DNA from: Candidatus Bathyarchaeia archaeon
GTDB taxonomy: Archaea > Thermoproteota > Bathyarchaeia > 40CM-2-53-6
Length of the DNA: 64,000 nt
Direction: 5' to 3'
NCBI GenBank assembly: GCA_050013255.1
Contig: JBEKFP010000001.1
Coordinates: 160,001-224,000 of the forward strand
Of the stretch, positions 5,307 through 25,822 are shown piece after piece. The notes beneath the pieces are model-generated. The model was not told the origin of the DNA. It did no database searches and worked only from the letters and a program-made list of their open reading frames with translations. A program made the position numbers and the translations under genes. Position 1 is the stretch's first letter, and each line of letters begins with the position of its first letter.

Positions 5307-5415
5307 GCCGGGGTAGCCAAGAGACCGGTATCCGGTCGGGCAACCTGGTATGGCGTCGGATTGCTAATCCGATGATCGCAAGGTCTCGTGGGTTCAAATC
5401 CCACCCCCGGCGCCA
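5307..5415 (+). tRNA. tRNA-Ser(GCT) with ~22-nt D-loop intron (~5322-5343) and encoded CCA
   Basis: Acceptor GCCGGGG/CCCCGGC, anticodon arm TCGGA-TTGCTAA-TCCGA, long variable arm, GGTTCAAATCC; intron hairpin GACCGG-TAT-CCGGTC. Confidence 0.93.
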
Positions 5416-5530
5416 ACTCCTTCCGTCTATCCTAGACGTAGGAGAGAAGAGAGGGAGATTGTTACCACAGATATGCTTGATGTCTTGCTCTGAGACTTTT
5501 CTCCGCCGCTGTATTTTAAACGAGGACGGT

Positions 5531-6379
5531 TCACTTGTCATTCATGAAAATTGCACTCATCTCTCTCGGGTTCACGGCCTCAGCTGCGAAGGAAAAAGTA
5601 CCATGCTCCCTCATTTCGCGGGCAGCGCGAAGAAAGGCGCCAAGGGCGGTGCGACAGAGCGCGCTCCCAACGCTTACCCGTTTGACTCCGATCTCTGAGA
5701 GTTCAGCTAAGCTTAGTTGAACGCCTTGCAGCCCCATCACCACGTTCACGGGGCGGTTCACAGAGTTGACAACTGCTGCAATATCCGCCTTAGTAGCTAG
5801 GCCCGGGGCATACAGGACATCCGCCCCCGCCTCTTCATACGCTTGCAGCCGCTTGATAGTATCTGCAAGGTCTGACCGACCATGCCAATAGTTCTCCGCA
5901 CGAGCGGTCAAAGTGAAAGGAAACGGAAGGGCACGCGCCGCCGCTACCGCCGCCCGAACTCGCTCAATCGCAGGCTCTATTTCATAGATCGGATGGTCCG
6001 AGCGCCCGGTTGCATCTTCGATTGAACCCCCGACAACTCCTGCAGCGGCGGCAAGTCTGATTGTTTCGGCAACGACTTCAGGCGAATCTCCAAATCCATT
6101 CTCAAGATCGGCGCTTACAGGCAGCTGGGTGGCTGACGCAATTGCAGACGCGTACGCCAACGTCTCATCGCGGTCAAGGGTGTTATCTCGCCTCCCGAGA
6201 GAAAACGCGTAACCCATACTAGGAGTAGCAAGCGCCTCAAACCCCACGTGTGCCAGCAGGCGCGCGGTACCTACATCCCACGGATTGGGAATGATGAATG
6301 CGCCACTACGCTCATGAAGTGCCCGAAAAACCCGTCCCCTCTCCGCCTGCGTCGCCAAAGCTCCATCGCTCGAAGTCAT
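5531..6379 (-). CDS. Isocitrate lyase/PEP mutase family protein
   Basis: PNPWDVGTAR, PVSADLENGFG, GGSIEDA, ARAEN, GADVLYAPG. Confidence 0.9.
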   Translation of the reverse strand: MTSSDGALATQAERGRVFRALHERSGAFIIPNPWDVGTARLLAHVGFEALATPSMGYAFSLGRRDNTLDRDETLAYASAIASATQLPVSADLENGFGDSPEVVAETIRLAAAAGVVGGSIEDATGRSDHPIYEIEPAIERVRAAVAAARALPFPFTLTARAENYWHGRSDLADTIKRLQAYEEAGADVLYAPGLATKADIAAVVNSVNRPVNVVMGLQGVQLSLAELSEIGVKRVSVGSALCRTALGAFLRAAREMREHGTFSFAAEAVNPREMSAIFMNDK

Positions 6380-6716
6380 CGCAATCGCGCCTCCTTAGCT
6401 TCGGCAATGAGGAGAAAAACATTGTGGGTGTGCGGCGAGCCATTCGGGAATTCTATGGTGAAAATCGTCGGCGATTGGAGATTAGGACTGAGCGGATTTG
6501 GAACGTAGCCTTGAATATTCTTGTCATACTGCTCTCGGCCATTGTTGGATTCGTATTCGGTCGACTGGGTTCCAGATAGAATTGCAGAGTGTTCTGATTT
6601 GCGCGGTGCCGCAAGAGTTCTCTAGGTTCAGGTGCTTTTTCCTTTTTCTTGCGGGGGTGCGCACCACGACACATTTAATCATCGTTAGGCCCTGGAAGTA
6701 CAGAGAGGAGAGCAAG

Positions 6717-7061
6717 ATGAGCAACGAACAGGTGGCACCTGAGACGAAAGGCGTTACGGTGAAGTTACTTGCAACGGTTGACCTTGGCCCTGAGATCGAG
6801 GGCATGGCAGGGCGCCAGCTTCGAATGCGTATGGTGACCATCGAGCCTGGAGGCGTCATTGGCCCGCTTCACGACCATAAAGACAGACCAGGCACCGTCT
6901 ACATACTGCAAGGAACGATCACTGACCATCGAAATGGAGTCGCTACGGACTTTGGGCCGGGAGTGGGCTGGCCCGAGGATAGGAATACCATACACTGGCT
7001 TGAGAACAGAGGAACGATTCCGGCGGTGGAGATCTCGGTCGATATAGTCAGGCAAGAGTAA
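6717..7061 (+). CDS. Cupin-domain protein
   Basis: TIEPGG..HDHKDRPGTVYILQG, HWLENRG; ATG 6717 after GGAG. Confidence 0.88.
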   Translation: MSNEQVAPETKGVTVKLLATVDLGPEIEGMAGRQLRMRMVTIEPGGVIGPLHDHKDRPGTVYILQGTITDHRNGVATDFGPGVGWPEDRNTIHWLENRGTIPAVEISVDIVRQE

Positions 7062-7303
7062 GCTCAGGCTGAAAGACTGCGTGGGATACGCACCACGAGA
7101 CACACACACCTCCCCCCAAAAAAACGGATAAACCCAGAAAAAAGAATAAACTGCGAACACAGAGTCAAATTATGACGCTCACATCATTAGAGCCATGCAG
7201 GAAGAATCAGAGTTCTATTATGCTGTAAGCGCGCGCTAGAACCCAACCTTTGTGTTTTGTGCTCCTCTGGTTGCAGCAGCGATTTCGATAACAAAAGAGC
7301 GCA

Positions 7304-7507
7304 TCACGTCGATCCCTTCTCGAGTAGCCTGAGTCTTGCACGTCGTAGTTGTTGCTCGTCCAGTTTGTTGAAGTATTCTGTTAGCGCCTGCCTTATGGCT
7401 TCAGGCTTCGAGCCAACAACTCCTCTCTGGATTATTTCGTCCAATCTTCTTGCCAGTTCGCCTGTGAGGTCGAAATCTATTCTCGTGCTATAGCGGTCGT
7501 TCTGCAT
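7304..7507 (-). CDS. Ribbon-helix-helix (CopG-like) DNA-binding protein
   Basis: TRIDFDL-TGELARRLDEII-SKPEAIRQAL pattern. Confidence 0.7.
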   Translation of the reverse strand: MQNDRYSTRIDFDLTGELARRLDEIIQRGVVGSKPEAIRQALTEYFNKLDEQQLRRARLRLLEKGST

Positions 7508-7772
7508 CCTCCACTTTCCCCTCTTCCCTGTCGTGGGTTTCGATTTTATCGTCGTCTGCTTCAGAGAGCAGCTGGTCAAGGTCTATGGTGAGTTCGGGGG
7601 GGCTTATAGTAGTGCGGGCAGCTGAAATTGAACTCGACGTGATTGGATGTCGACCTAAGAGTTTAGTGTAAGGTAAGCATTATTCATGAACGATAGTCAG
7701 TTTGCCAGAATCGAAAAACTCAGCGAACGATAAACTTCCGGGGTTCATCCAGCCAAGCACAGAAAACCACGG

Positions 7773-7796
7773 GGGTTCAAATCCCACCCCCGGCGC
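7773..7796 (+). repeat. att-like copy 1 of tRNA-Ser 3' end
   Basis: GGGTTCAAATCCCACCCCCGGCGC identical to 5390-5413. Confidence 0.92.
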
Positions 7797-8006
7797 TTTC
7801 AGCTCCACCCCCTGCATCGAACCTTGAAATCGTAGGAGAAATGGGACAAATATGCCAGTGAGGCTGATCTGTATTTTGTTAGGGGCTGCCGTGCTGCCGA
7901 CGTAGTTCGTAGTTGATTGTGACCGGGTGGCCGCGTTTGTGTCTTATGTCGAACTTGTAGGGGAAATTGTATAAGGATTCCCGCAAATTATCATACAAAT
8001 TGTCGG

Positions 8007-8039
8007 GTGTATAACACCAAAAATTCATGTGTTATACAC
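8007..8039. promoter_or_regulatory. Perfect 11-bp inverted repeat with 11-bp spacer (putative protein-binding/recombination site)
   Basis: GTGTATAACAC-N11-GTGTTATACAC. Confidence 0.5.
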
Positions 8040-8170
8040 GCGCTCAGACCACCCAAGGATTTAGTGCGGACTTCGCATTATAGAAGTACGCGAATCTAAT
8101 TGTCCGACGAAGAAACTCCTCCAAATGAAAATCATCCGGTGTTCGCGGAGTCAAGCACGGGAACTGCGGG

Positions 8171-8194
8171 GGGTTCAAATCCCACCCCCGGCGC
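8171..8194 (+). repeat. att-like copy 2 of tRNA-Ser 3' end
   Basis: 24/24 identical to 5390-5413; the preceding ~40 bp are shared with 11805-11844. Confidence 0.92.
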
Positions 8195-8347
8195 TTTCAA
8201 CGTTACCCACCGTATCATAACTCTGGTTTTGTCGACCAGCCTCTACTGATTATACAAGCCGAATATTCGTGGTTGCTCCTCGGCGTCAAACATCATTACG
8301 TGAGCGCCTGGCGGGACGATGTTTGCAATCCAAGCGCTGATTGCTCC

Positions 8348-8842: not shown

Positions 8843-9805
8843 ATGAAGAAGATAGCCGTGGTTACAACTGGTGGTGATGCGCCTGGCATGAATGCTGCCA
8901 TCAGAGGCGTTGTCCGTATCGCCTGTTCAAAGAAGTTCCAAGTTCTGGGTTTCAGGAGAGGGTGGGAAGGCTTGATTACAAATATGTTTACCCAGTTGAC
9001 GCCTCGATCCGTAGGCGGCATTCTACAATTAGGTGGAACAATTCTGCATACATCAAGATGCCCGGAGTTCGAGAAGAAAAAAGGAATCGGGAAAGCTGCG
9101 GAAACTCTCGCATCGAATCATATTGATGGACTCGTTGTCATCGGCGGTAACGGCTCTTTCAAGGGCGCTCTTGAGCTTAGCGAATACACAGATACAATGA
9201 TAGTTGGAATTCCTGCGTCAATCGACAACGATGTCTTTGGAACAGAGGAAACCATAGGTTTTGACACGGCTGCAAACACAGCAGTCGCCGAAATCGATAA
9301 GATCCGAGACACGGCAGTTTCCGAGGAGAGAGTTTTCATGATTGAAGTGATGGGGCGAGAGAGGGGTTTTCTCGCGTTGGAGATCGGCCTCACCGTTGGC
9401 GCGGAGATAATTCTAGTTCCAGAAGTGAAATATCAAAACGAGAACCTCTTCGAGACCGTAAGAGAAAACATGGCCAAAGGAAAGAAGTCAGGCCTGATCG
9501 TGGCGGCTGAAGGAATCGGAGACACTCGTCTTCTTGCAGGACAGATCCAGCGAAACACAAAGGCAGAGGTCAGATTGAGCATCATAGGCTACGCCCAAAG
9601 AGGCGGCAATCCCACGGTGAGGAGCAGGCTCTTGGCCAGCCTATTCGCAAACAAAGCGATCCAGCTATTGTCACACAAAGACGGTAGCAGAGTAGTCGGA
9701 TTGCAAGATGGCGAGATTGGAAGTGTGCAGCTTCAGAAATCATGTAATACGAAGAAAGTGTTGGATCCAAACCTACTTAGACTGGCTAATTTACTTGCAA
9801 CATAA
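8843..9805 (+). CDS. pfkA: ATP-dependent 6-phosphofructokinase, bacterial PfkA type
   Basis: TGGDAPGMNAAIR, GGTIL, GGNGS, PASIDND, IEVMGR, GYAQRGG. Confidence 0.93.
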   Translation: MKKIAVVTTGGDAPGMNAAIRGVVRIACSKKFQVLGFRRGWEGLITNMFTQLTPRSVGGILQLGGTILHTSRCPEFEKKKGIGKAAETLASNHIDGLVVIGGNGSFKGALELSEYTDTMIVGIPASIDNDVFGTEETIGFDTAANTAVAEIDKIRDTAVSEERVFMIEVMGRERGFLALEIGLTVGAEIILVPEVKYQNENLFETVRENMAKGKKSGLIVAAEGIGDTRLLAGQIQRNTKAEVRLSIIGYAQRGGNPTVRSRLLASLFANKAIQLLSHKDGSRVVGLQDGEIGSVQLQKSCNTKKVLDPNLLRLANLLAT

Positions 9806-20074: not shown

Positions 20075-20274
20075 GAAAGAAACACGATTCTTCACGCGTG
20101 CGGTTCGGAGCTATTAAAACTTGCCCCGTGGGCCTAACACGGCTTGATAGATGCACGTTTTGGATTCTCTGGCTTACATTGAGCGAAACTAACCCTTTTA
20201 TTGTAAAAAACGCCTCGCTTCAACATGCGAAACTCACACATTACAAGTATGAAACCGGAGGGCAGAGAGCCGCC

Positions 20275-21045
20275 TTGAGCTACGCAGACGCCCACCTACA
20301 TTTGGCGGACCCTGGCTTTGCCGGCCGCACAGAACAGGCCATTGATGATGCGACCAAGAACAAGGTGATGCGCCTTCTCTCAAACTCGGTGGATTATGAG
20401 ACGTCAACCCAAACCATAGCCTTAGCGAAACGATACTCCCCGAGGGTTCTCGCGGCCATAGGAGTTCACCCTTCGACGGTCATGAACACAAAAGACCAAC
20501 GTCTGGACGAGTTTCAGAAGCTAGTTGAGGAAAATGCAGGGTACGTTGCCGCAATCGGAGAGGTAGGTCTTGACGGAAAGTATACGCAAGACGAGCAGGT
20601 TAGAAAACGCCAGTTGGAAGTTTTCAGGTTCTTCCTTGGCCTGGCCGAGCGTAGAGGGCTACCAGTCGTAGTCCACTCGAGGATGGCAGTTGATGAAGTG
20701 CTACGAACCTTGCAAGACTTCCGTCTCCCCAAAGTCTTGTTACATTGGTATGATGGGCCGTTAGACAAACTTGAGGTGATTAGAGATAGAGGTTACCTGA
20801 TCTCGATCGGGCCAGCAGTATTCTACTCTCGGGCAATAAGCCAAGTTGCAGCTAACGTAGCATTGGACATGATATCGAGCGAAACCGATGGCCCCGTAAA
20901 ATACCACGGACCTTTCGAAGGCCGGCTCACGCAACCTTCTTTCGTAATAGAAGTGGTACAGAAATTAGCTGAGATTAAGGGCCTCCACATTGACGCAGTG
21001 CGAGAAGCGGTCTGGAGCAATTTCCAAAAACTCATTCCGCAATAG
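20275..21045 (+). CDS. tatD: TatD-family DNase
   Basis: DAHLH, GVHP, IGEVGLD, VHSR, HWY, ETDGP; TTG start at 20275. Confidence 0.9.
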   Translation: MSYADAHLHLADPGFAGRTEQAIDDATKNKVMRLLSNSVDYETSTQTIALAKRYSPRVLAAIGVHPSTVMNTKDQRLDEFQKLVEENAGYVAAIGEVGLDGKYTQDEQVRKRQLEVFRFFLGLAERRGLPVVVHSRMAVDEVLRTLQDFRLPKVLLHWYDGPLDKLEVIRDRGYLISIGPAVFYSRAISQVAANVALDMISSETDGPVKYHGPFEGRLTQPSFVIEVVQKLAEIKGLHIDAVREAVWSNFQKLIPQ

Positions 21046-21067
21046 GACTGTACAGTTCCCGCATTAG

Positions 21068-21105
21068 GGATCTGCCAAACTATCTCTCGTATTCTTGGCA
21101 GAATC
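21068..21105. mobile_element. 38-bp mini-element (ends only)
   Basis: GGATCTGCCAA...TTGGCAGAATC inverted ends between identical CGCATTAG copies. Confidence 0.7.
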
Positions 21106-21151
21106 CGCATTAGGGCTCTGTAAAGTCTGCATCGGTTATTGCACTTTGAAT

Positions 21152-21292
21152 ATGGCTATGAAGAAAATGATGATATCCGTATCCGACGACATGCTCAAAG
21201 CACTAGAAGCAGAACGCAAGGCACGAAAGTTAGAGACAGTACCAGAAGCCGTAAGAGCCGTGCTTGGAGAATACTTCAAGACGAAGCAATAA
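21152..21292 (+). CDS. Ribbon-helix-helix (CopG-like) protein, 46 aa
   Basis: MKKMMISVSDDMLKALE...VPEAVRAVL. Confidence 0.75.
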   Translation: MAMKKMMISVSDDMLKALEAERKARKLETVPEAVRAVLGEYFKTKQ

Positions 21293-21298
21293 GAGGGG

Positions 21299-22090
21299 TT
21301 AAGGACGGTCAGAAGAAGCCGATTCTTAGCACTTGCCATTATCTTTTGGCTAGCGTCAATAGGCTCCTTAGTAGTGGGAGCAGGGACGAACCCTGACCTC
21401 ATCTCTGGAGTCTCTTCGTTCTTGGTACGTGTGGGTTGGAGCAAACCTCCACTCATACCACTTGTTGAGTACTCTTCATCGATACAATTCACGCTTCCTC
21501 CATCGGTTCCCACTACTCCCATAGAGCCAGTAACCATGAAAGTTACACTGAGAGGAGAGGCTATTGTGGACAACGCGCCATTGACGATGATTGTAGACGC
21601 TCCAATCTCGGTCTTTGCAAAAGGAAATTGGACAATTGGCCCGACGATGGTAACTCCTGATAATGCACGCCCAGTTTCGTCTGGTATGCCTTCAACGCAA
21701 TTGAACTTGCGCTGGTGGACCACTGATGAATATGGTACCGAAATGTGGAATGGAACTGAGACATTCGAACTCACAACCTTTGGGGTCTTTGGTGTCACTA
21801 TTGGGATGTACATTGACCCTAGTCCACCAATGCGAGACTTTGAGAGTAGGACGGGTAAGTATGTAGGGTATGGTGGATACCTAACCATACACAACTCAAC
21901 AAAAATTATCGTTAATTCATCGGAAGTTAATGCCGCCGAACTAAGTGCGGAAAGAGCGATAGCGACAGGAAATAGTTTAGCATGGTTCATCATTTTCTTT
22001 GCCTCGCTTGATATTGGGTTTAGATTTTACGATTACAGTTCTGATGAAAAGGAGAATCATAGATGCGAACGCGAACCCGAAGAACCCTAA
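21299..22090 (+). CDS. Secreted/membrane-anchored hypothetical protein, start codon apparently lost
   Basis: Signal-peptide-like LRTVRRSRFLALAIIFWLASIGSLVVG lies in frame upstream of the called GTG (21374) but begins with TTA; C-terminal TM. Confidence 0.55.
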   Translation, partial: LRTVRRSRFLALAIIFWLASIGSLVVGAGTNPDLISGVSSFLVRVGWSKPPLIPLVEYSSSIQFTLPPSVPTTPIEPVTMKVTLRGEAIVDNAPLTMIVDAPISVFAKGNWTIGPTMVTPDNARPVSSGMPSTQLNLRWWTTDEYGTEMWNGTETFELTTFGVFGVTIGMYIDPSPPMRDFESRTGKYVGYGGYLTIHNSTKIIVNSSEVNAAELSAERAIATGNSLAWFIIFFASLDIGFRFYDYSSDEKENHRCEREPEEP

Positions 22091-22276
22091 GAATAAGCCA
22101 CCGCATGCCAGTTCGAGCCAAACATGAGACTGAAGGAATTCCTCGTTCATACTAAGGAATCCCATTATGATAAGAGTCCAGATAATACCGCTTAAGGGCA
22201 CGAAAAACCCGAATATCACCCAGTCTTCGTCACTTATGCTCACTATACGCGCCCTGATTTGAGAGAGGCGAACCAT
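21977..22276 (-). CDS. Small membrane hypothetical protein
   Basis: Two hydrophobic segments; overlaps the 3' end of the opposite ORF. Confidence 0.45.
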   Translation of the reverse strand: MVRLSQIRARIVSISDEDWVIFGFFVPLSGIIWTLIIMGFLSMNEEFLQSHVWLELACGGLFLGFFGFAFASMILLFIRTVIVKSKPNIKRGKENDEPC

Positions 22277-22423
22277 CTCTCAGTTCGCCACGTAACCGAC
22301 GGTTCTTGACAACGGTAAAAATTGGAAGCGTCGGAACCAACCGCCGCCAACTTGACAGCGTCCGCATCAGGGTTCTGTCAAAAGTACGGGAGATAAATTC
22401 GCCTGTAAAGTCGCGGGAGATGC

Positions 22424-22744
22424 CTAACTTGATTTCCGCAATTTTTCAGTGATTATTCTAACGATTTCTCCCTTATCGAGTTGAACTTCCGTTCTTTCCA
22501 CGGTGATTTTAGCTCGATTATCTGTTTTCAATTTGTCGTACAACCAATTGGTGAATAGACCAATCGCCACTTGGCTGGATATAGTCAAGATGACTTGCGT
22601 TATCAGTAGTGCTTCTTCACTGTCCGCCCCTGAACTTAGCCCAAATCGGGCACTAACTGTTCCGCTAAAGATTTTCTTGTCATTAATTTCGCTGTAGATT
22701 TCTGAGGCTAATTTGAAGTCATGCGTTACCAAAACGATTTCCAT
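22424..22744 (-). CDS. Cargo hypothetical protein (resembles effector-associated EACC1-like small domain)
   Basis: 106 aa with hydrophobic helix VAIGLFTNWLYDKLK then KITV; family resemblance is from memory only. Confidence 0.6.
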   Translation of the reverse strand: MEIVLVTHDFKLASEIYSEINDKKIFSGTVSARFGLSSGADSEEALLITQVILTISSQVAIGLFTNWLYDKLKTDNRAKITVERTEVQLDKGEIVRIITEKLRKSS

Positions 22745-22850
22745 AAAAGGAGAACTCTAACCTATCCTCTTATGACTTGCGTTCTGGGGTAACGCGTCGT
22801 TGTTGTTTGGTATGGGAAGGCGCGGCAAAGCGTTTGGTGGGGTTTTGAGG

Positions 22851-23297
22851 CTACTTTTCGAGAGTTGGTTTGTATCCCAGAATGTCAGGTTTGAACAAGC
22901 CTGATAGAAGGTTCCAGAAGGATAGGTATTGATGGCGAATCTTGTCATAGTCAGCTCTTATGATTCTTACGAAGTCATCCTGCCGATTTCCCACGAAGGC
23001 ATCCTCTGATGGTTTGGTCGCCAAAATATATCCGACATAGAAGTGGTGAAGGTTACGACTCATGAGATAATTCTTCTGATGAAGTAATTCGAGTAAGTCA
23101 TGATAATCCTGTTCCCCATGTTTCGGAAAGTGCTCTCTATCACTAAACCACGCATAGCGAAGAAGCGGAGAATACAGGCCGTCTAGCCGTTTCTCAATCG
23201 TCCTATGTCTTTGATTTAACGCTCCGACAAGGAGCGCGAACACGGCCACTATTAGAGCGGTAAGAATAGGGATTACTGTGCTAACGTTTTGGTCCAT
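22851..23297 (-). CDS. Cargo protein with N-terminal TM helix
   Basis: VIPILTALIVAVFALLVGAL followed by a soluble domain. Confidence 0.65.
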   Translation of the reverse strand: MDQNVSTVIPILTALIVAVFALLVGALNQRHRTIEKRLDGLYSPLLRYAWFSDREHFPKHGEQDYHDLLELLHQKNYLMSRNLHHFYVGYILATKPSEDAFVGNRQDDFVRIIRADYDKIRHQYLSFWNLLSGLFKPDILGYKPTLEK

Positions 23298-24429
23298 TTT
23301 GCTTCGAGGCATTCTGTATGATGGTCAGCCATTTGTCTTGCCCTTTGACCTCGATTCCCGCAACTTCTGAGGGTGTTTTCCCGTCTAGGGCTTCGTGTGG
23401 ACGAATGTAGTTATGGTAGATTTGTAGCCCTGTTAGGATTGGGCCGTCTGGTTTCTTGAGGTTTCTAGTTACTCTCTCGCGGTCGCGGATTTCTCCGTTC
23501 ATGCGTTCCATCTTGTTATTGTTGTGCTGTCCTGCCAAAGTGATTTGTCGAATGTGTACGGTGCTGTCGGATAGCTTGTTGGTTCGGAACTCTTTGAGCC
23601 ATGCATCGTGGTAAGAGCGTAGTCCGTCTGTGATTAGGATTTGCGGTTTCTTTCCTGCTCTATCCTTTGCCATTTGGAACAAGTGCCGTGCGTCATGTGT
23701 ATCTTTCGTGTCTGCTACTTCTTGTGCTATCCAGAATCTTGTCTCGTCGTCCATCATAGCGAAAACGTACTTCATGTTCCCGTGAAACTTCATGTAGAGC
23801 TCATCAGCCCGCCAAGTATCCGAAACTTGTGGCGTTATCTTGTCTAGGTACTTCTCCATCAGAGCCGTGTATCGCTTAATCCAGTTGTAGATTGTCTGGT
23901 GAGATACTTCCACGCCTTGAAGTCGCAAGAACTTCTTCGTGTTCCGTAGGCTCTCACCTGTGAAGTAGAGTTGAAGTGCGCTTGTCACGATTTGTGGTGT
24001 GGCTTTCAATCGCTCGAAACCTAGGTTCCTCACGAAGCGTTTTCCACAATTTTTGCATGTGAAGCGTTGAATGTCTCCGTTCTTGTTGTGTCGTAACCCA
24101 TCTCGAACTAATGTTTGCGAATCGCAGTAGAGGCATTTTGTTATGTCGAGAGGTCTGATTACTACTTGGTTGCTGACTTCGGCTCGTAATGCTTGCGAGA
24201 ATTCGACAGCCCAAATATGCTTACACTTAACCTCACGATAGATATGGTCGGGGCAACTGCAACGCCAAGCACGAAGATGATTATCCTTAACGACGGTGTA
24301 GAGGCCGTGTCCCGCTTGAGATTTGACCTGATAGGTTCCGTCGTCTAGCCGTGCGATTTGGCCTTCTAGCTTACAAATTTGTTGACCTCGCATTACTCGG
24401 CCTTCATCTATTTCACGTCTGAACGGCAT
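23281..24429 (-). CDS. IS6/IS240-type DDE transposase with N-terminal SWIM Zn finger and IS1-like Zn ribbon
   Basis: SWIM CSCPD..CKH; CLYC..CKNC; HTH VSHQTIYNW; WRADE, ITDG, NNKMERMN; likely start ATG 24429. Confidence 0.92.
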   Translation of the reverse strand: MPFRREIDEGRVMRGQQICKLEGQIARLDDGTYQVKSQAGHGLYTVVKDNHLRAWRCSCPDHIYREVKCKHIWAVEFSQALRAEVSNQVVIRPLDITKCLYCDSQTLVRDGLRHNKNGDIQRFTCKNCGKRFVRNLGFERLKATPQIVTSALQLYFTGESLRNTKKFLRLQGVEVSHQTIYNWIKRYTALMEKYLDKITPQVSDTWRADELYMKFHGNMKYVFAMMDDETRFWIAQEVADTKDTHDARHLFQMAKDRAGKKPQILITDGLRSYHDAWLKEFRTNKLSDSTVHIRQITLAGQHNNNKMERMNGEIRDRERVTRNLKKPDGPILTGLQIYHNYIRPHEALDGKTPSEVAGIEVKGQDKWLTIIQNASKQNGPKR

Positions 24430-24439
24430 CTCAATCCCT

Positions 24440-24493
24440 GCCACAATATTGTGGCGTAACCCAAATATAAGCCTTGCCACTATATTGTGGCAA
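24440..24493. promoter_or_regulatory. Twin palindromic operators flanking a TATA-like element
   Basis: GCCACAATATTGTGGC (24440-55, perfect) and TTGCCACTATATTGTGGCAA (24474-93) around AAATATAA. Confidence 0.75.
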
Positions 24494-24690
24494 TGGTGAT
24501 AAGAACGGTAAGAAAAGAAATTCTCGGTCAATCCGAACGTAGGATACTCGAAGCTTACCTGAAAGGCGAACGACTCAAAGGGTACAATACACTTCTATGG
24601 CGAATCCGTACTATCGGTCTTAGAGCAATCATAGAAGGTTGTGAGAAAGACATAGCACTGCTAAGGAAACTCGCACAAAAACTATCCTAA
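24493..24690 (+). CDS. Small basic protein divergent from the transposase (candidate regulator)
   Basis: 65 aa, helical and basic; start overlaps the second operator. Confidence 0.65.
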   Translation: MVIRTVRKEILGQSERRILEAYLKGERLKGYNTLLWRIRTIGLRAIIEGCEKDIALLRKLAQKLS

Positions 24691-24960
24691 ATGCAAAACG
24701 ACGACTAAGATTAGTAACCCCAAGTAAAGCAAGGGAAGGATAAGCAAAACCGCTACAAGTGCTACCTGCTTCCAACTCTCTCCTTCCCCTAGAATGAACC
24801 ACGCACCAGCAATAAATGGGGGGATTGTCAGAACAACAAGAATTGTCTCTTCTACAGACAATCGAAAGAACCCTACGTCGAAGGTGAAGAACCAGAACAG
24901 GTATGCATAGAGAGCGAGCAACACCATTACTGGTATAGATTGAAGTACGCCTTTGGCCAC
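24682..24960 (-). CDS. Cargo 3-TM membrane protein
   Basis: Highly hydrophobic 92 aa. Confidence 0.6.
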   Translation of the reverse strand: MAKGVLQSIPVMVLLALYAYLFWFFTFDVGFFRLSVEETILVVLTIPPFIAGAWFILGEGESWKQVALVAVLLILPLLYLGLLILVVVLHLG

Positions 24961-25446
24961 CTAGTTCCCCTCACGGTCAACTAATAGAATTAGCTGGGCA
25001 TTGTAGCCTACTGCAATCAGAAAACCGAACAATGCCACGGCGAATAATATCCCTTCCCAACCCGAAGTATTTTGCGGAGATATGATGCCGTTGTCTATGC
25101 TTAGTCTAATGAGGATGGAACCTAGAAAGACCAAGCCTGCGAAGAGGTAGAATTGAAATGCTAAATCTAGCCGTTTGGCGGGTTCTAAAGCGGTTACGCG
25201 ATAGTCGGACATGCTGAAGATTTGGTTCTCTATTGTACGAATTTGTCTTGAACTGGCTCGTTTTAGCAGTTTTCTAACTTTCGCTCTACCTGTTCTGATT
25301 CGTTTTTCCTTAATCTTCCTAAGATTTGCTGAATACCTATGATGGACATCAAAACCGAGTCCCAAACTTAATGCCATCAGTGTAAGCGATACCCACCATA
25401 GCTCAGCGGCCATCGAGAAATCAGGAAAAGGAATCATCGATTGCAT
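24961..25446 (-). CDS. Cargo 3-TM membrane protein with basic loop
   Basis: 161 aa; abuts the downstream ORF. Confidence 0.65.
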   Translation of the reverse strand: MQSMIPFPDFSMAAELWWVSLTLMALSLGLGFDVHHRYSANLRKIKEKRIRTGRAKVRKLLKRASSRQIRTIENQIFSMSDYRVTALEPAKRLDLAFQFYLFAGLVFLGSILIRLSIDNGIISPQNTSGWEGILFAVALFGFLIAVGYNAQLILLVDREGN

Positions 25447-25570
25447 ATTTGTTGTTTGCTATCTCCCGAACTTGACACAAGAAAAATCTCCCGCTCGTTT
25501 GACAGAACCCGCATCAGCAAAGTTTATGTTGAGTGCGCTTTGCTCTTGGTTCGATTCAGAGCTGTTAGGT

Positions 25571-25822
25571 TTGGGGAAAGTTCGCACTGATACAGTGAAG
25601 CGAGTTTCTAGGGAGGTACTTAGAAGATTCCCCGAACGTTTCGCTGGAGACTGGGAATCCGACAAGCAGGCCGTTAGTGACTTGGTGTCTACGCAGTCTA
25701 AACGCTTGCGTAACAGGATAGCAGGGTACGTGACAAGGCTGAAGGTTGTCGAAGCGGAACGCGCGGCCGCCACTGAGGTTGCCGCTGAGGCTCCCGAAGC
25801 AACGGAACCAGACGAAGAATGA
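25571..25822 (+). CDS. rps17e: 30S ribosomal protein S17e
   Basis: MGKVRT..VKR, SKRLRNRIAGYVTR; TTG start. Confidence 0.95.
   Translation: MGKVRTDTVKRVSREVLRRFPERFAGDWESDKQAVSDLVSTQSKRLRNRIAGYVTRLKVVEAERAAATEVAAEAPEATEPDEE

Follow-up and report, generated by a model that had tools for sequence, protein, structure and literature searches.

Promoter-read target choice is already known from the yeast Ty elements and from the bacterial TnGBS/ISLre2 elements. Ty3, as well as Ty1 and the Dictyostelium element TRE5-A, inserts at a fixed position at a TBP-containing initiation complex, where it finds an upstream safe haven and reuses its sites, and the tether of Ty3 to the initiation complex has been shown experimentally. 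All of these are eukaryotic LTR or non-LTR retroelements using Pol III factors. TnGBS ICEs and the insertion sequences ISLre2 and ISKra4 insert 15 to 17 bp upstream of sigma-A promoters, and a contact with the initiation complex was proposed for them by analogy with Ty3; the only archaeal remark in that work is that ISH6 duplicates an AT-rich motif (PMC3942029). Tn7, which depends on TnsABC+D, reads the glmS coding sequence and enters attTn7 in a fixed orientation with a 5-bp duplication, adjoining an essential gene harmlessly, and one site can be occupied in tandem. IS6/IS26 elements are compact (about 0.7 to 0.9 kb), with the transposase as their only gene, and transpose through cointegrates. 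The review that describes the ends and the 8-bp duplication of the IS6 family lists a single cargo-bearing member, ISDsp3, and such target specificity is unreported there (PMC7986276).

The locus studied here resembles IS6/IS26 in the DDE_Tnp_IS240 core of its transposase, in its GG..CTGT..CAA ends (a GG tip with CTGT and CAAA motifs), and in the 8-bp target duplication, but it differs in a 3139-bp intact unit with passenger ORFs, about 135 extra N-terminal residues in the transposase, a promoter-anchored target, and stacked arrays. TnGBS, ISLre2, and ISKra4 are the nearest functional prokaryotic precedent, being likewise DDE elements at a fixed distance upstream of promoters. Those elements (p-MULT 3 and 4), however, have a Mutator-like transposase, use -35/-10 promoters, and lie mostly in one orientation with IRr beside the promoter, whereas here the promoter is of the archaeal BRE/TATA type and the window transposase gave no match to the Mutator-superfamily profile PF00872, matching IS240/rve instead. 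The resemblance to Tn7 is limited to site-specific, harmless, and repeated occupancy beside an essential gene, since Pfam searches found no TnsA/B/C or target-selector domains in the ORFs of the intact unit, the duplication is 8 bp, and both orientations occur. One mark of a Ty3-like mode, insertion at a constant distance from an element of the core promoter in front of many unrelated genes, holds here at 29 of 34 sites; the other, physical contact of the integrase or transposase with TBP or a TFIIB-like factor, is a hypothesis in the present case. We very likely see successive insertions of one IS6 clade, with an 8-bp cut whose position depends on the host core promoter rather than on the 8-mer. 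Insertion at a fixed step upstream of the BRE/TATA of highly expressed genes would be new to archaea and to the IS6 family; we found no account of TATA-anchored insertion for either in the literature searched.

Array of IS6-type units between tatD and rps17e

The window, that is, the whole stretch of DNA analyzed, is a 64,000-nt part of a 2.46-Mb Bathyarchaeia MAG (G000:C1:160001-224000). Four IS6-type units are stacked in the gap between tatD and rps17e, with five copies of one 8-mer target duplication between them. The features are as follows (no strand is assigned to units and 8-mers).

20098..21045, plus strand: tatD gene (ORF; Pfam TatD_DNase, 5.5e-60)
21038..21045: 8-mer copy A, CGCAATAG, farthest from the promoter and inferred to be the oldest
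21043-45, plus strand: TAG stop of tatD, inside copy A
21046..21059: unit E1, a 14-bp near-palindromic stub of two IS6-type ends (GACTGTACAGTTCC)
21060..21067: 8-mer copy B, CGCATTAG
21068..21105: unit E2, a 38-bp ends-only relic (GGATCTGCCAAA ... TTGGCAGAATC)
21106..21113: 8-mer copy C, CGCATTAG
21114..22362: unit E3, 1249 bp, without transposase and with decayed inverted ends
21152-21292, plus strand: small RHH-like ORF in unit E3
22363..22370: 8-mer copy D, CGCATCAG
22371..25509: unit E4, intact transposon of 3139 bp
23281..24429, minus strand: transposase of E4 (SWIM, C4 zinc ribbon, HTH, and IS240/IS6-type DDE core)
24487..24690, plus strand: divergent 67-aa ORF of E4, adjoining the transposase gene
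25510..25517: 8-mer copy E, CGCATCAG, inferred to be the youngest duplication, adjoining the promoter
25518..25522, plus strand: CAAAG, a BRE-like purine-rich stretch at +1 to +5 after the duplication, conserved in the genus
25523..25530, plus strand: TTTATGTT, TATA box of rps17e at +6 to +13 after the duplication, conserved throughout the genus
25571..25822, plus strand: rps17e, with a TTG start at 25571 (Pfam Ribosomal_S17e, 6e-16)

Copy E is directly followed by CAAAGTTTATG (25518-28), and no better TATA match than TTTATGTT lies in the 40 nt flanking the array on each side. The first-pass annotation had pointed to a BRE/TATA-like stretch directly behind the newest duplication, which the sequence bears out, and had placed it about 45 nt before rps17e; its position holds, and the exact distance from the TTG start, which is kept in every same-genus orthologue found, is 48 nt. 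Two further remarks, that the oldest 8-mer copy holds the tatD stop and that the 8-mer changes stepwise along the array (CAAT>CATT>CATC), can be read directly from the letters. A role of the stop in targeting, in contrast, has to be dropped: the overlap is incidental, because the intergenic spacer is very short (in G010, the tatD TAA lies 5 nt before the target).

The junction pattern TTGACAGNNNCCGCATYAG occurs four times in the array, against 0.9 chance matches expected in the whole window. Decay of the units rises with distance from the rps17e promoter, from the intact 3139 bp through 1249 and 38 bp down to 14 bp. Since CGCATTAG is the 8-mer that adjoins the promoter in the outgroups G018, G021, and G014 and in a metagenome locus (L141), CGCATCAG is the derived state, which makes the 3.1-kb unit beside the promoter the youngest. 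We thus infer an order of events running from the oldest unit near tatD to the youngest near rps17e.

The neighborhood of tatD and rps17e is conserved in all 19 same-genus genomes in which rps17e was found, with a gap ranging from 78 bp to 7.2 kb. The block TTAGCAAAGTTTATG is kept upstream of every same-genus rps17e orthologue shown, CAAAG being present in each, and the majority of these genomes have an IS6-type end (cTTGACAGnnCC) exactly 8 bp before CAAAG. The 8-mers at this site vary by species (CGCATTAG, ACCATTAG, TCAATTAG, GCATTTAG, CCTATTAG, CTGATTAG, TAAGGTAG, and GCAGGTAG), differing at the first four to five positions. Across more than 10 species, the elements at the site differ in end subfamily (at least two, judged from the subterminal sequences), length, and orientation. 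G010 has an empty site, in which the tatD TAA and CGAAGGTAGCAG are followed by CAAAGTTTATG; a pattern search of related genomes for empty sites at two other targets found none, so that only this one is documented. The differences in 8-mer, end subfamily, length, and orientation, together with the empty site, imply that the rps17e site was hit many times independently in the same promoter register.

A separate observation concerns tatD itself in G020 (L097, G020:C23, about 9100-9185), where the last eight tatD codons, including TAG, consist of an IS6-type end relic and an 8-mer (..AATGACAGAGGTCTCATTTAG|CAAAG). Here, a transposon remnant has turned into coding sequence.

Offset of insertion sites from TATA boxes

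A genome scan for end-like 14-mers was too noisy, and we therefore defined a site by paired IS6-type ends (no more than 4 mismatches in 16 nt) together with a flanking 8-bp direct repeat (no more than 1 mismatch). Transposase-homology loci in related genomes, GTDB genomes, and JGI metagenomes yielded a discovery set of 19 distinct validated sites or arrays from Bathyarchaeia and Thaumarchaeota, the latter represented by Nitrosocosmicus and Nitrosotalea, and 8-bp duplications were present at all validated relatives. For each site, we took the best match to an a priori archaeal TATA consensus (TTTAWAWW) in the 40 nt to either side. At +4 to +6, a score of 6/8 or more is reached by 7% of random positions in our genome and by 13% of positions in the same loci, and these values served as backgrounds.

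The first-pass annotation had proposed that position is set by a flanking promoter feature rather than by the 8-mer, and that a TATA box should then recur at a fixed offset across homologous insertions. This prediction was met. The best TATA match lay at +4 to +6 beyond the duplication in 15 of the 19 discovery sites (P = 1e-14 with the 7% and 1e-10 with the 13% background). With the criterion fixed beforehand, we then searched 300 further Bathyarchaeia genomes as a hold-out; this added 31 new loci in 18 other genomes, among which 15 arrays had outer flanks that could be read, and a box of at least 6/8 was found at +4 to +6 in 14 of them, the remaining one being borderline (gaacagATATAT; P = 9e-16 and 5e-12 with the respective backgrounds). 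Both sets together comprise 29 conforming sites out of 34, with a combined P below 1e-20 (about 1e-21 or lower). These P values are somewhat optimistic, as the sites are partly orthologous promoters, but they remain far below 1e-8 when orthologues are collapsed. No clear box at the offset was found at the other five sites (L144, L149, L179, L195 [weak], and L293 [borderline]).

For the conforming discovery sites, 17 flank sequences were tabulated, and they give the consensus N8|mAAnnYTTAWA. Positions +7 to +10 are A or T throughout, with A at +9 in 17/17 and T at +7 and at +8 in 14/17; A stands at +2 in 14/17 and at +3 in 11/17, and +13 to +16 are G+C rich. The eight duplicated positions show no consensus between sites. 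The offset has a slack of 1 to 2 nt, as at a thermosome promoter that was hit at two registers. The two orientations relative to the promoter are about equally frequent (7 to 7 in the hold-out), and both occur at the rps17e site, at the S8e site, which holds seven different elements, and at one Nitrosotalea site, where two MAGs carry elements in opposite directions. The fixed offset in both sets, the lack of an 8-mer consensus, and the use of both orientations make promoter-guided targeting well supported.

Where the flanks are long enough, a gene directed away from the element begins 21 to 60 nt past the box. These genes, identified by Pfam or, at two sites, by N-terminal sequence, encode ribosomal proteins (S17e, S8e, S6e, and L38e), the thermosome (six sites, including that of the second element copy in our genome, at C2:559197), aEF-2, a proteasome subunit, Gar1, an SSB-like OB protein, SufB, SufS, and an ArsR-type regulator. 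The genes downstream thus include some of the most heavily transcribed ones. The boxes are real promoters, with no transcription start mapped as yet. The only other IS240-type copy of our genome is a pseudogene (C2:560136-561359), and it ends 8 bp plus 5 nt before the TATA box of a thermosome gene.

Two minor observations were made at these promoters. Thermosome and other targeted genes (G000:C2:559185 [minus strand], C1:1104041, L054, L060, L110, and L206) carry a palindrome, TTACC-N4-5-GTAAC, downstream of the TATA box and ahead of the start codon; it looks like a heat-shock-type operator that the genus has conserved. At L301 (G160:C24), an element at 5392-8292 has a TATA-like box at the canonical offset on both flanks (aaaaaCTTAAAAG and caaggTTTAAATA), and may have inserted between two divergent promoters.

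Intact element and its transposase

Unit E4 has terminal inverted repeats of 25 nt that are 88% complementary (GGTTCTGTCAAAAG and GGTTCTGTCAAACG, with the IS6-type motif start GGTTCTGTCAA...), and the identical 8-bp duplication CGCATCAG on both sides. Besides the transposase it carries five further ORFs, and related elements range from 2.0 to 5.3 kb. The transposase frame is open up to 24531, the probable start being the Met codon at 24429, and relatives align from about residue 35. Its Pfam matches are DDE_Tnp_IS240 (PF13610; 4.1e-16, above the cutoff), rve, and SWIM.

The IS240 core is preceded by a module of about 135 residues made up of a SWIM domain and a C4 ribbon. In 311 relatives of this module (protein clusters), PF13610 or rve was present in all, and the module was always fused to the IS240 core. 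An AF2 model of the N-terminal 135 residues reached a pLDDT of 87 and gave middling VIA matches, namely, the SWIM region of ZSWIM8 (Z 6.7), the NrdR ribbon (Z 6.2), and Dof (Z 4.1); these confirm a SWIM domain and a ribbon and show no function. Foldseek of the model against PDB gave no match at an E value of 0.001 or lower, and a profile search of the N terminus against PDB sequences returned generic zinc fingers only (E > 0.004). A Pfam match to the TFIIB zinc ribbon in the N terminus was subthreshold (E, 0.028) and was treated as chance. A predicted complex of TBP (residues 12 to 198) and the TFB core (100 to 310) from the same genome with the transposase (1 to 135) scored 0.00, which is not evidence either way.

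The 67-aa ORF beside the transposase gene recurs in that place in 39 related loci at 72 to 85% identity, being more conserved than the transposase, and is probably a transposon regulator. Between the two genes (24433-24492) are two copies of the palindrome GCCAC-N6-GTGGC (17 nt, 94% complementary). We also considered a universal accessory targeting protein and rejected it: the 67-aa ORF and the RHH ORF alternate in close relatives, and neither can be detected in distant members, which follow the rule nonetheless. The sole component common to all members is the transposase, and the promoter reader is therefore likely to be its N-terminal SWIM and zinc-ribbon module.

Readings of the target choice

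Our proposal is as follows. The transposase would make an 8-bp staggered cut at the upstream edge of the BRE, leaving 5 nt between the duplication and the TATA box downstream of it. Of the two copies of the duplication, the left one would remain with the upstream gene, and the right one, together with BRE and TATA, with the downstream gene. As the target, BRE, and TATA would thus be rebuilt on the promoter side, both genes are left unharmed, and the promoter keeps its function and remains a target. The element may insert in either orientation. A later element would enter the promoter-proximal copy and displace the older units, leaving a time-ordered array. At the tatD-rps17e locus, neither host gene is disrupted, as the first-pass annotation had stated.

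Which molecule is read remains an inference. Docking on the TFB/TBP-DNA complex is favored over direct reading of BRE/TATA DNA, at about even confidence, because of the bias to heavily used promoters, the neutrality of orientation, and the protein-binding relatives of the SWIM domain; binding has not been shown. That the SWIM/zinc-ribbon module is what tethers the transposase to DNA-bound TFB/TBP is a tentative inference, just short of even confidence, and there are no binding data for it.

As far as sequences alone can tell, direct reading fits equally well. The zinc domains of the transposase would then recognize BRE/TATA DNA (mAAnnYTTAWA) without any host factor, as an ordinary sequence-specific choice made at a distance. 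We regard this as possible but rather doubtful. The consensus is strong enough for direct recognition, and the C4 ribbon resembles the DNA-binding ribbons of NrdR and Dof. Moreover, the CAA at flank positions +1 to +3 mimics positions 9 to 11 of the element end (GGTTCTGT|CAA), so that an end-binding domain could sit there. Yet TATA-like strings are common, especially in the AT-rich Nitrosocosmicus, and the insertions are strongly biased to the most used promoters; both orientations of the element are used; and the SWIM domains nearest in fold (ZSWIM8 and Shu2) mediate protein contacts. None of these points is decisive.

The frequency of arrays with abutted ends might instead suggest that a first insertion was random and that later ones were drawn to the ends of the resident copy, as in the targeted-conservative route of IS26 or in IS30/IS911, the promoter being irrelevant. 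IS26 indeed favors sites beside another IS26 (PMC7986276). We consider this quite improbable, however, given that single elements lie at the same TATA offset at more than 20 unrelated promoters, that a TATA box bounds the arrays on one side (29/34 sites conform), and that the conservative route of IS26 yields no new duplication, whereas each unit here is bounded by one.

Survival after random insertion is less probable still. Under this explanation, only copies just upstream of a core promoter would be harmless and persist, and insertions within genes, or past the TATA box but short of the start site, would be lost to selection, which may account for the absence of copies on the downstream side of the box. 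Selection, though, cannot yield a precision of 1 to 2 nt; many intergenic positions are neutral, and other IS6-ended elements of the genome sit elsewhere.

Finally, the five near-identical 8-mers in the window could make the 8-mer (CGCAWYAG) look like a recognition site, or the array like one ancient insertion duplicated locally, but this is hardly tenable and is already refuted by comparison of the sequences: the 8-mers of other sites are unrelated, those of the rps17e site vary by species, and the units are unlike one another in what they carry, in end subfamily, and in orientation.

Promoter-guided insertion, if confirmed, would mean that settling in a safe haven ahead of the core promoter has evolved convergently in all three domains, and it would account for stacked, time-ordered transposon arrays. 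Such elements would be a natural probe of BRE/TATA promoters in uncultured Bathyarchaeia and Thaumarchaeota, as an insertion would mark a promoter to within 1 to 2 nt, as well as a candidate position-specific insertion tool for archaeal genetics. The use of TBP/TFB as a landing pad by a prokaryotic transposase also becomes testable. If the tether to TFB/TBP is true, this would be the first case, in archaea and in the IS6 family alike, of a transposon that the basal transcription machinery directs to its target, an independent Ty3-like strategy, and arrays would be chronological records of insertion at the most occupied promoters.

Among the IS6-ended elements of the genome that sit elsewhere are two of 1.26 kb (G000:C1:854024-855281 and G000:C2:62149-63427) with IS6-type ends (GGYWCTGTTAACTTGT) and 8-bp duplications, neither adjacent to a TATA box. 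Their only long ORF is TnpB/IS1341-like (383 and 404 aa, with RuvC and a zinc ribbon). The lack of a TATA box implies that another enzyme moves them or that an untargeted mode exists, and they may be TnpB cargo mobilized in trans by an IS6 enzyme. A lone IS6-type end at G000:C1:421831 (cgTTAACAGAACC) is followed by CACATTAG-CAA, which resembles the rps17e 8-mer, without a TATA box. In two other genomes (G014:C6:73266-76329 and G015:C22:22571-24620), a distant IS6-like transposase gene (34 to 41% identity) lies 0.3 to 1.3 kb upstream of the TBP gene, and the insertion may have occurred at the promoter of TBP itself.
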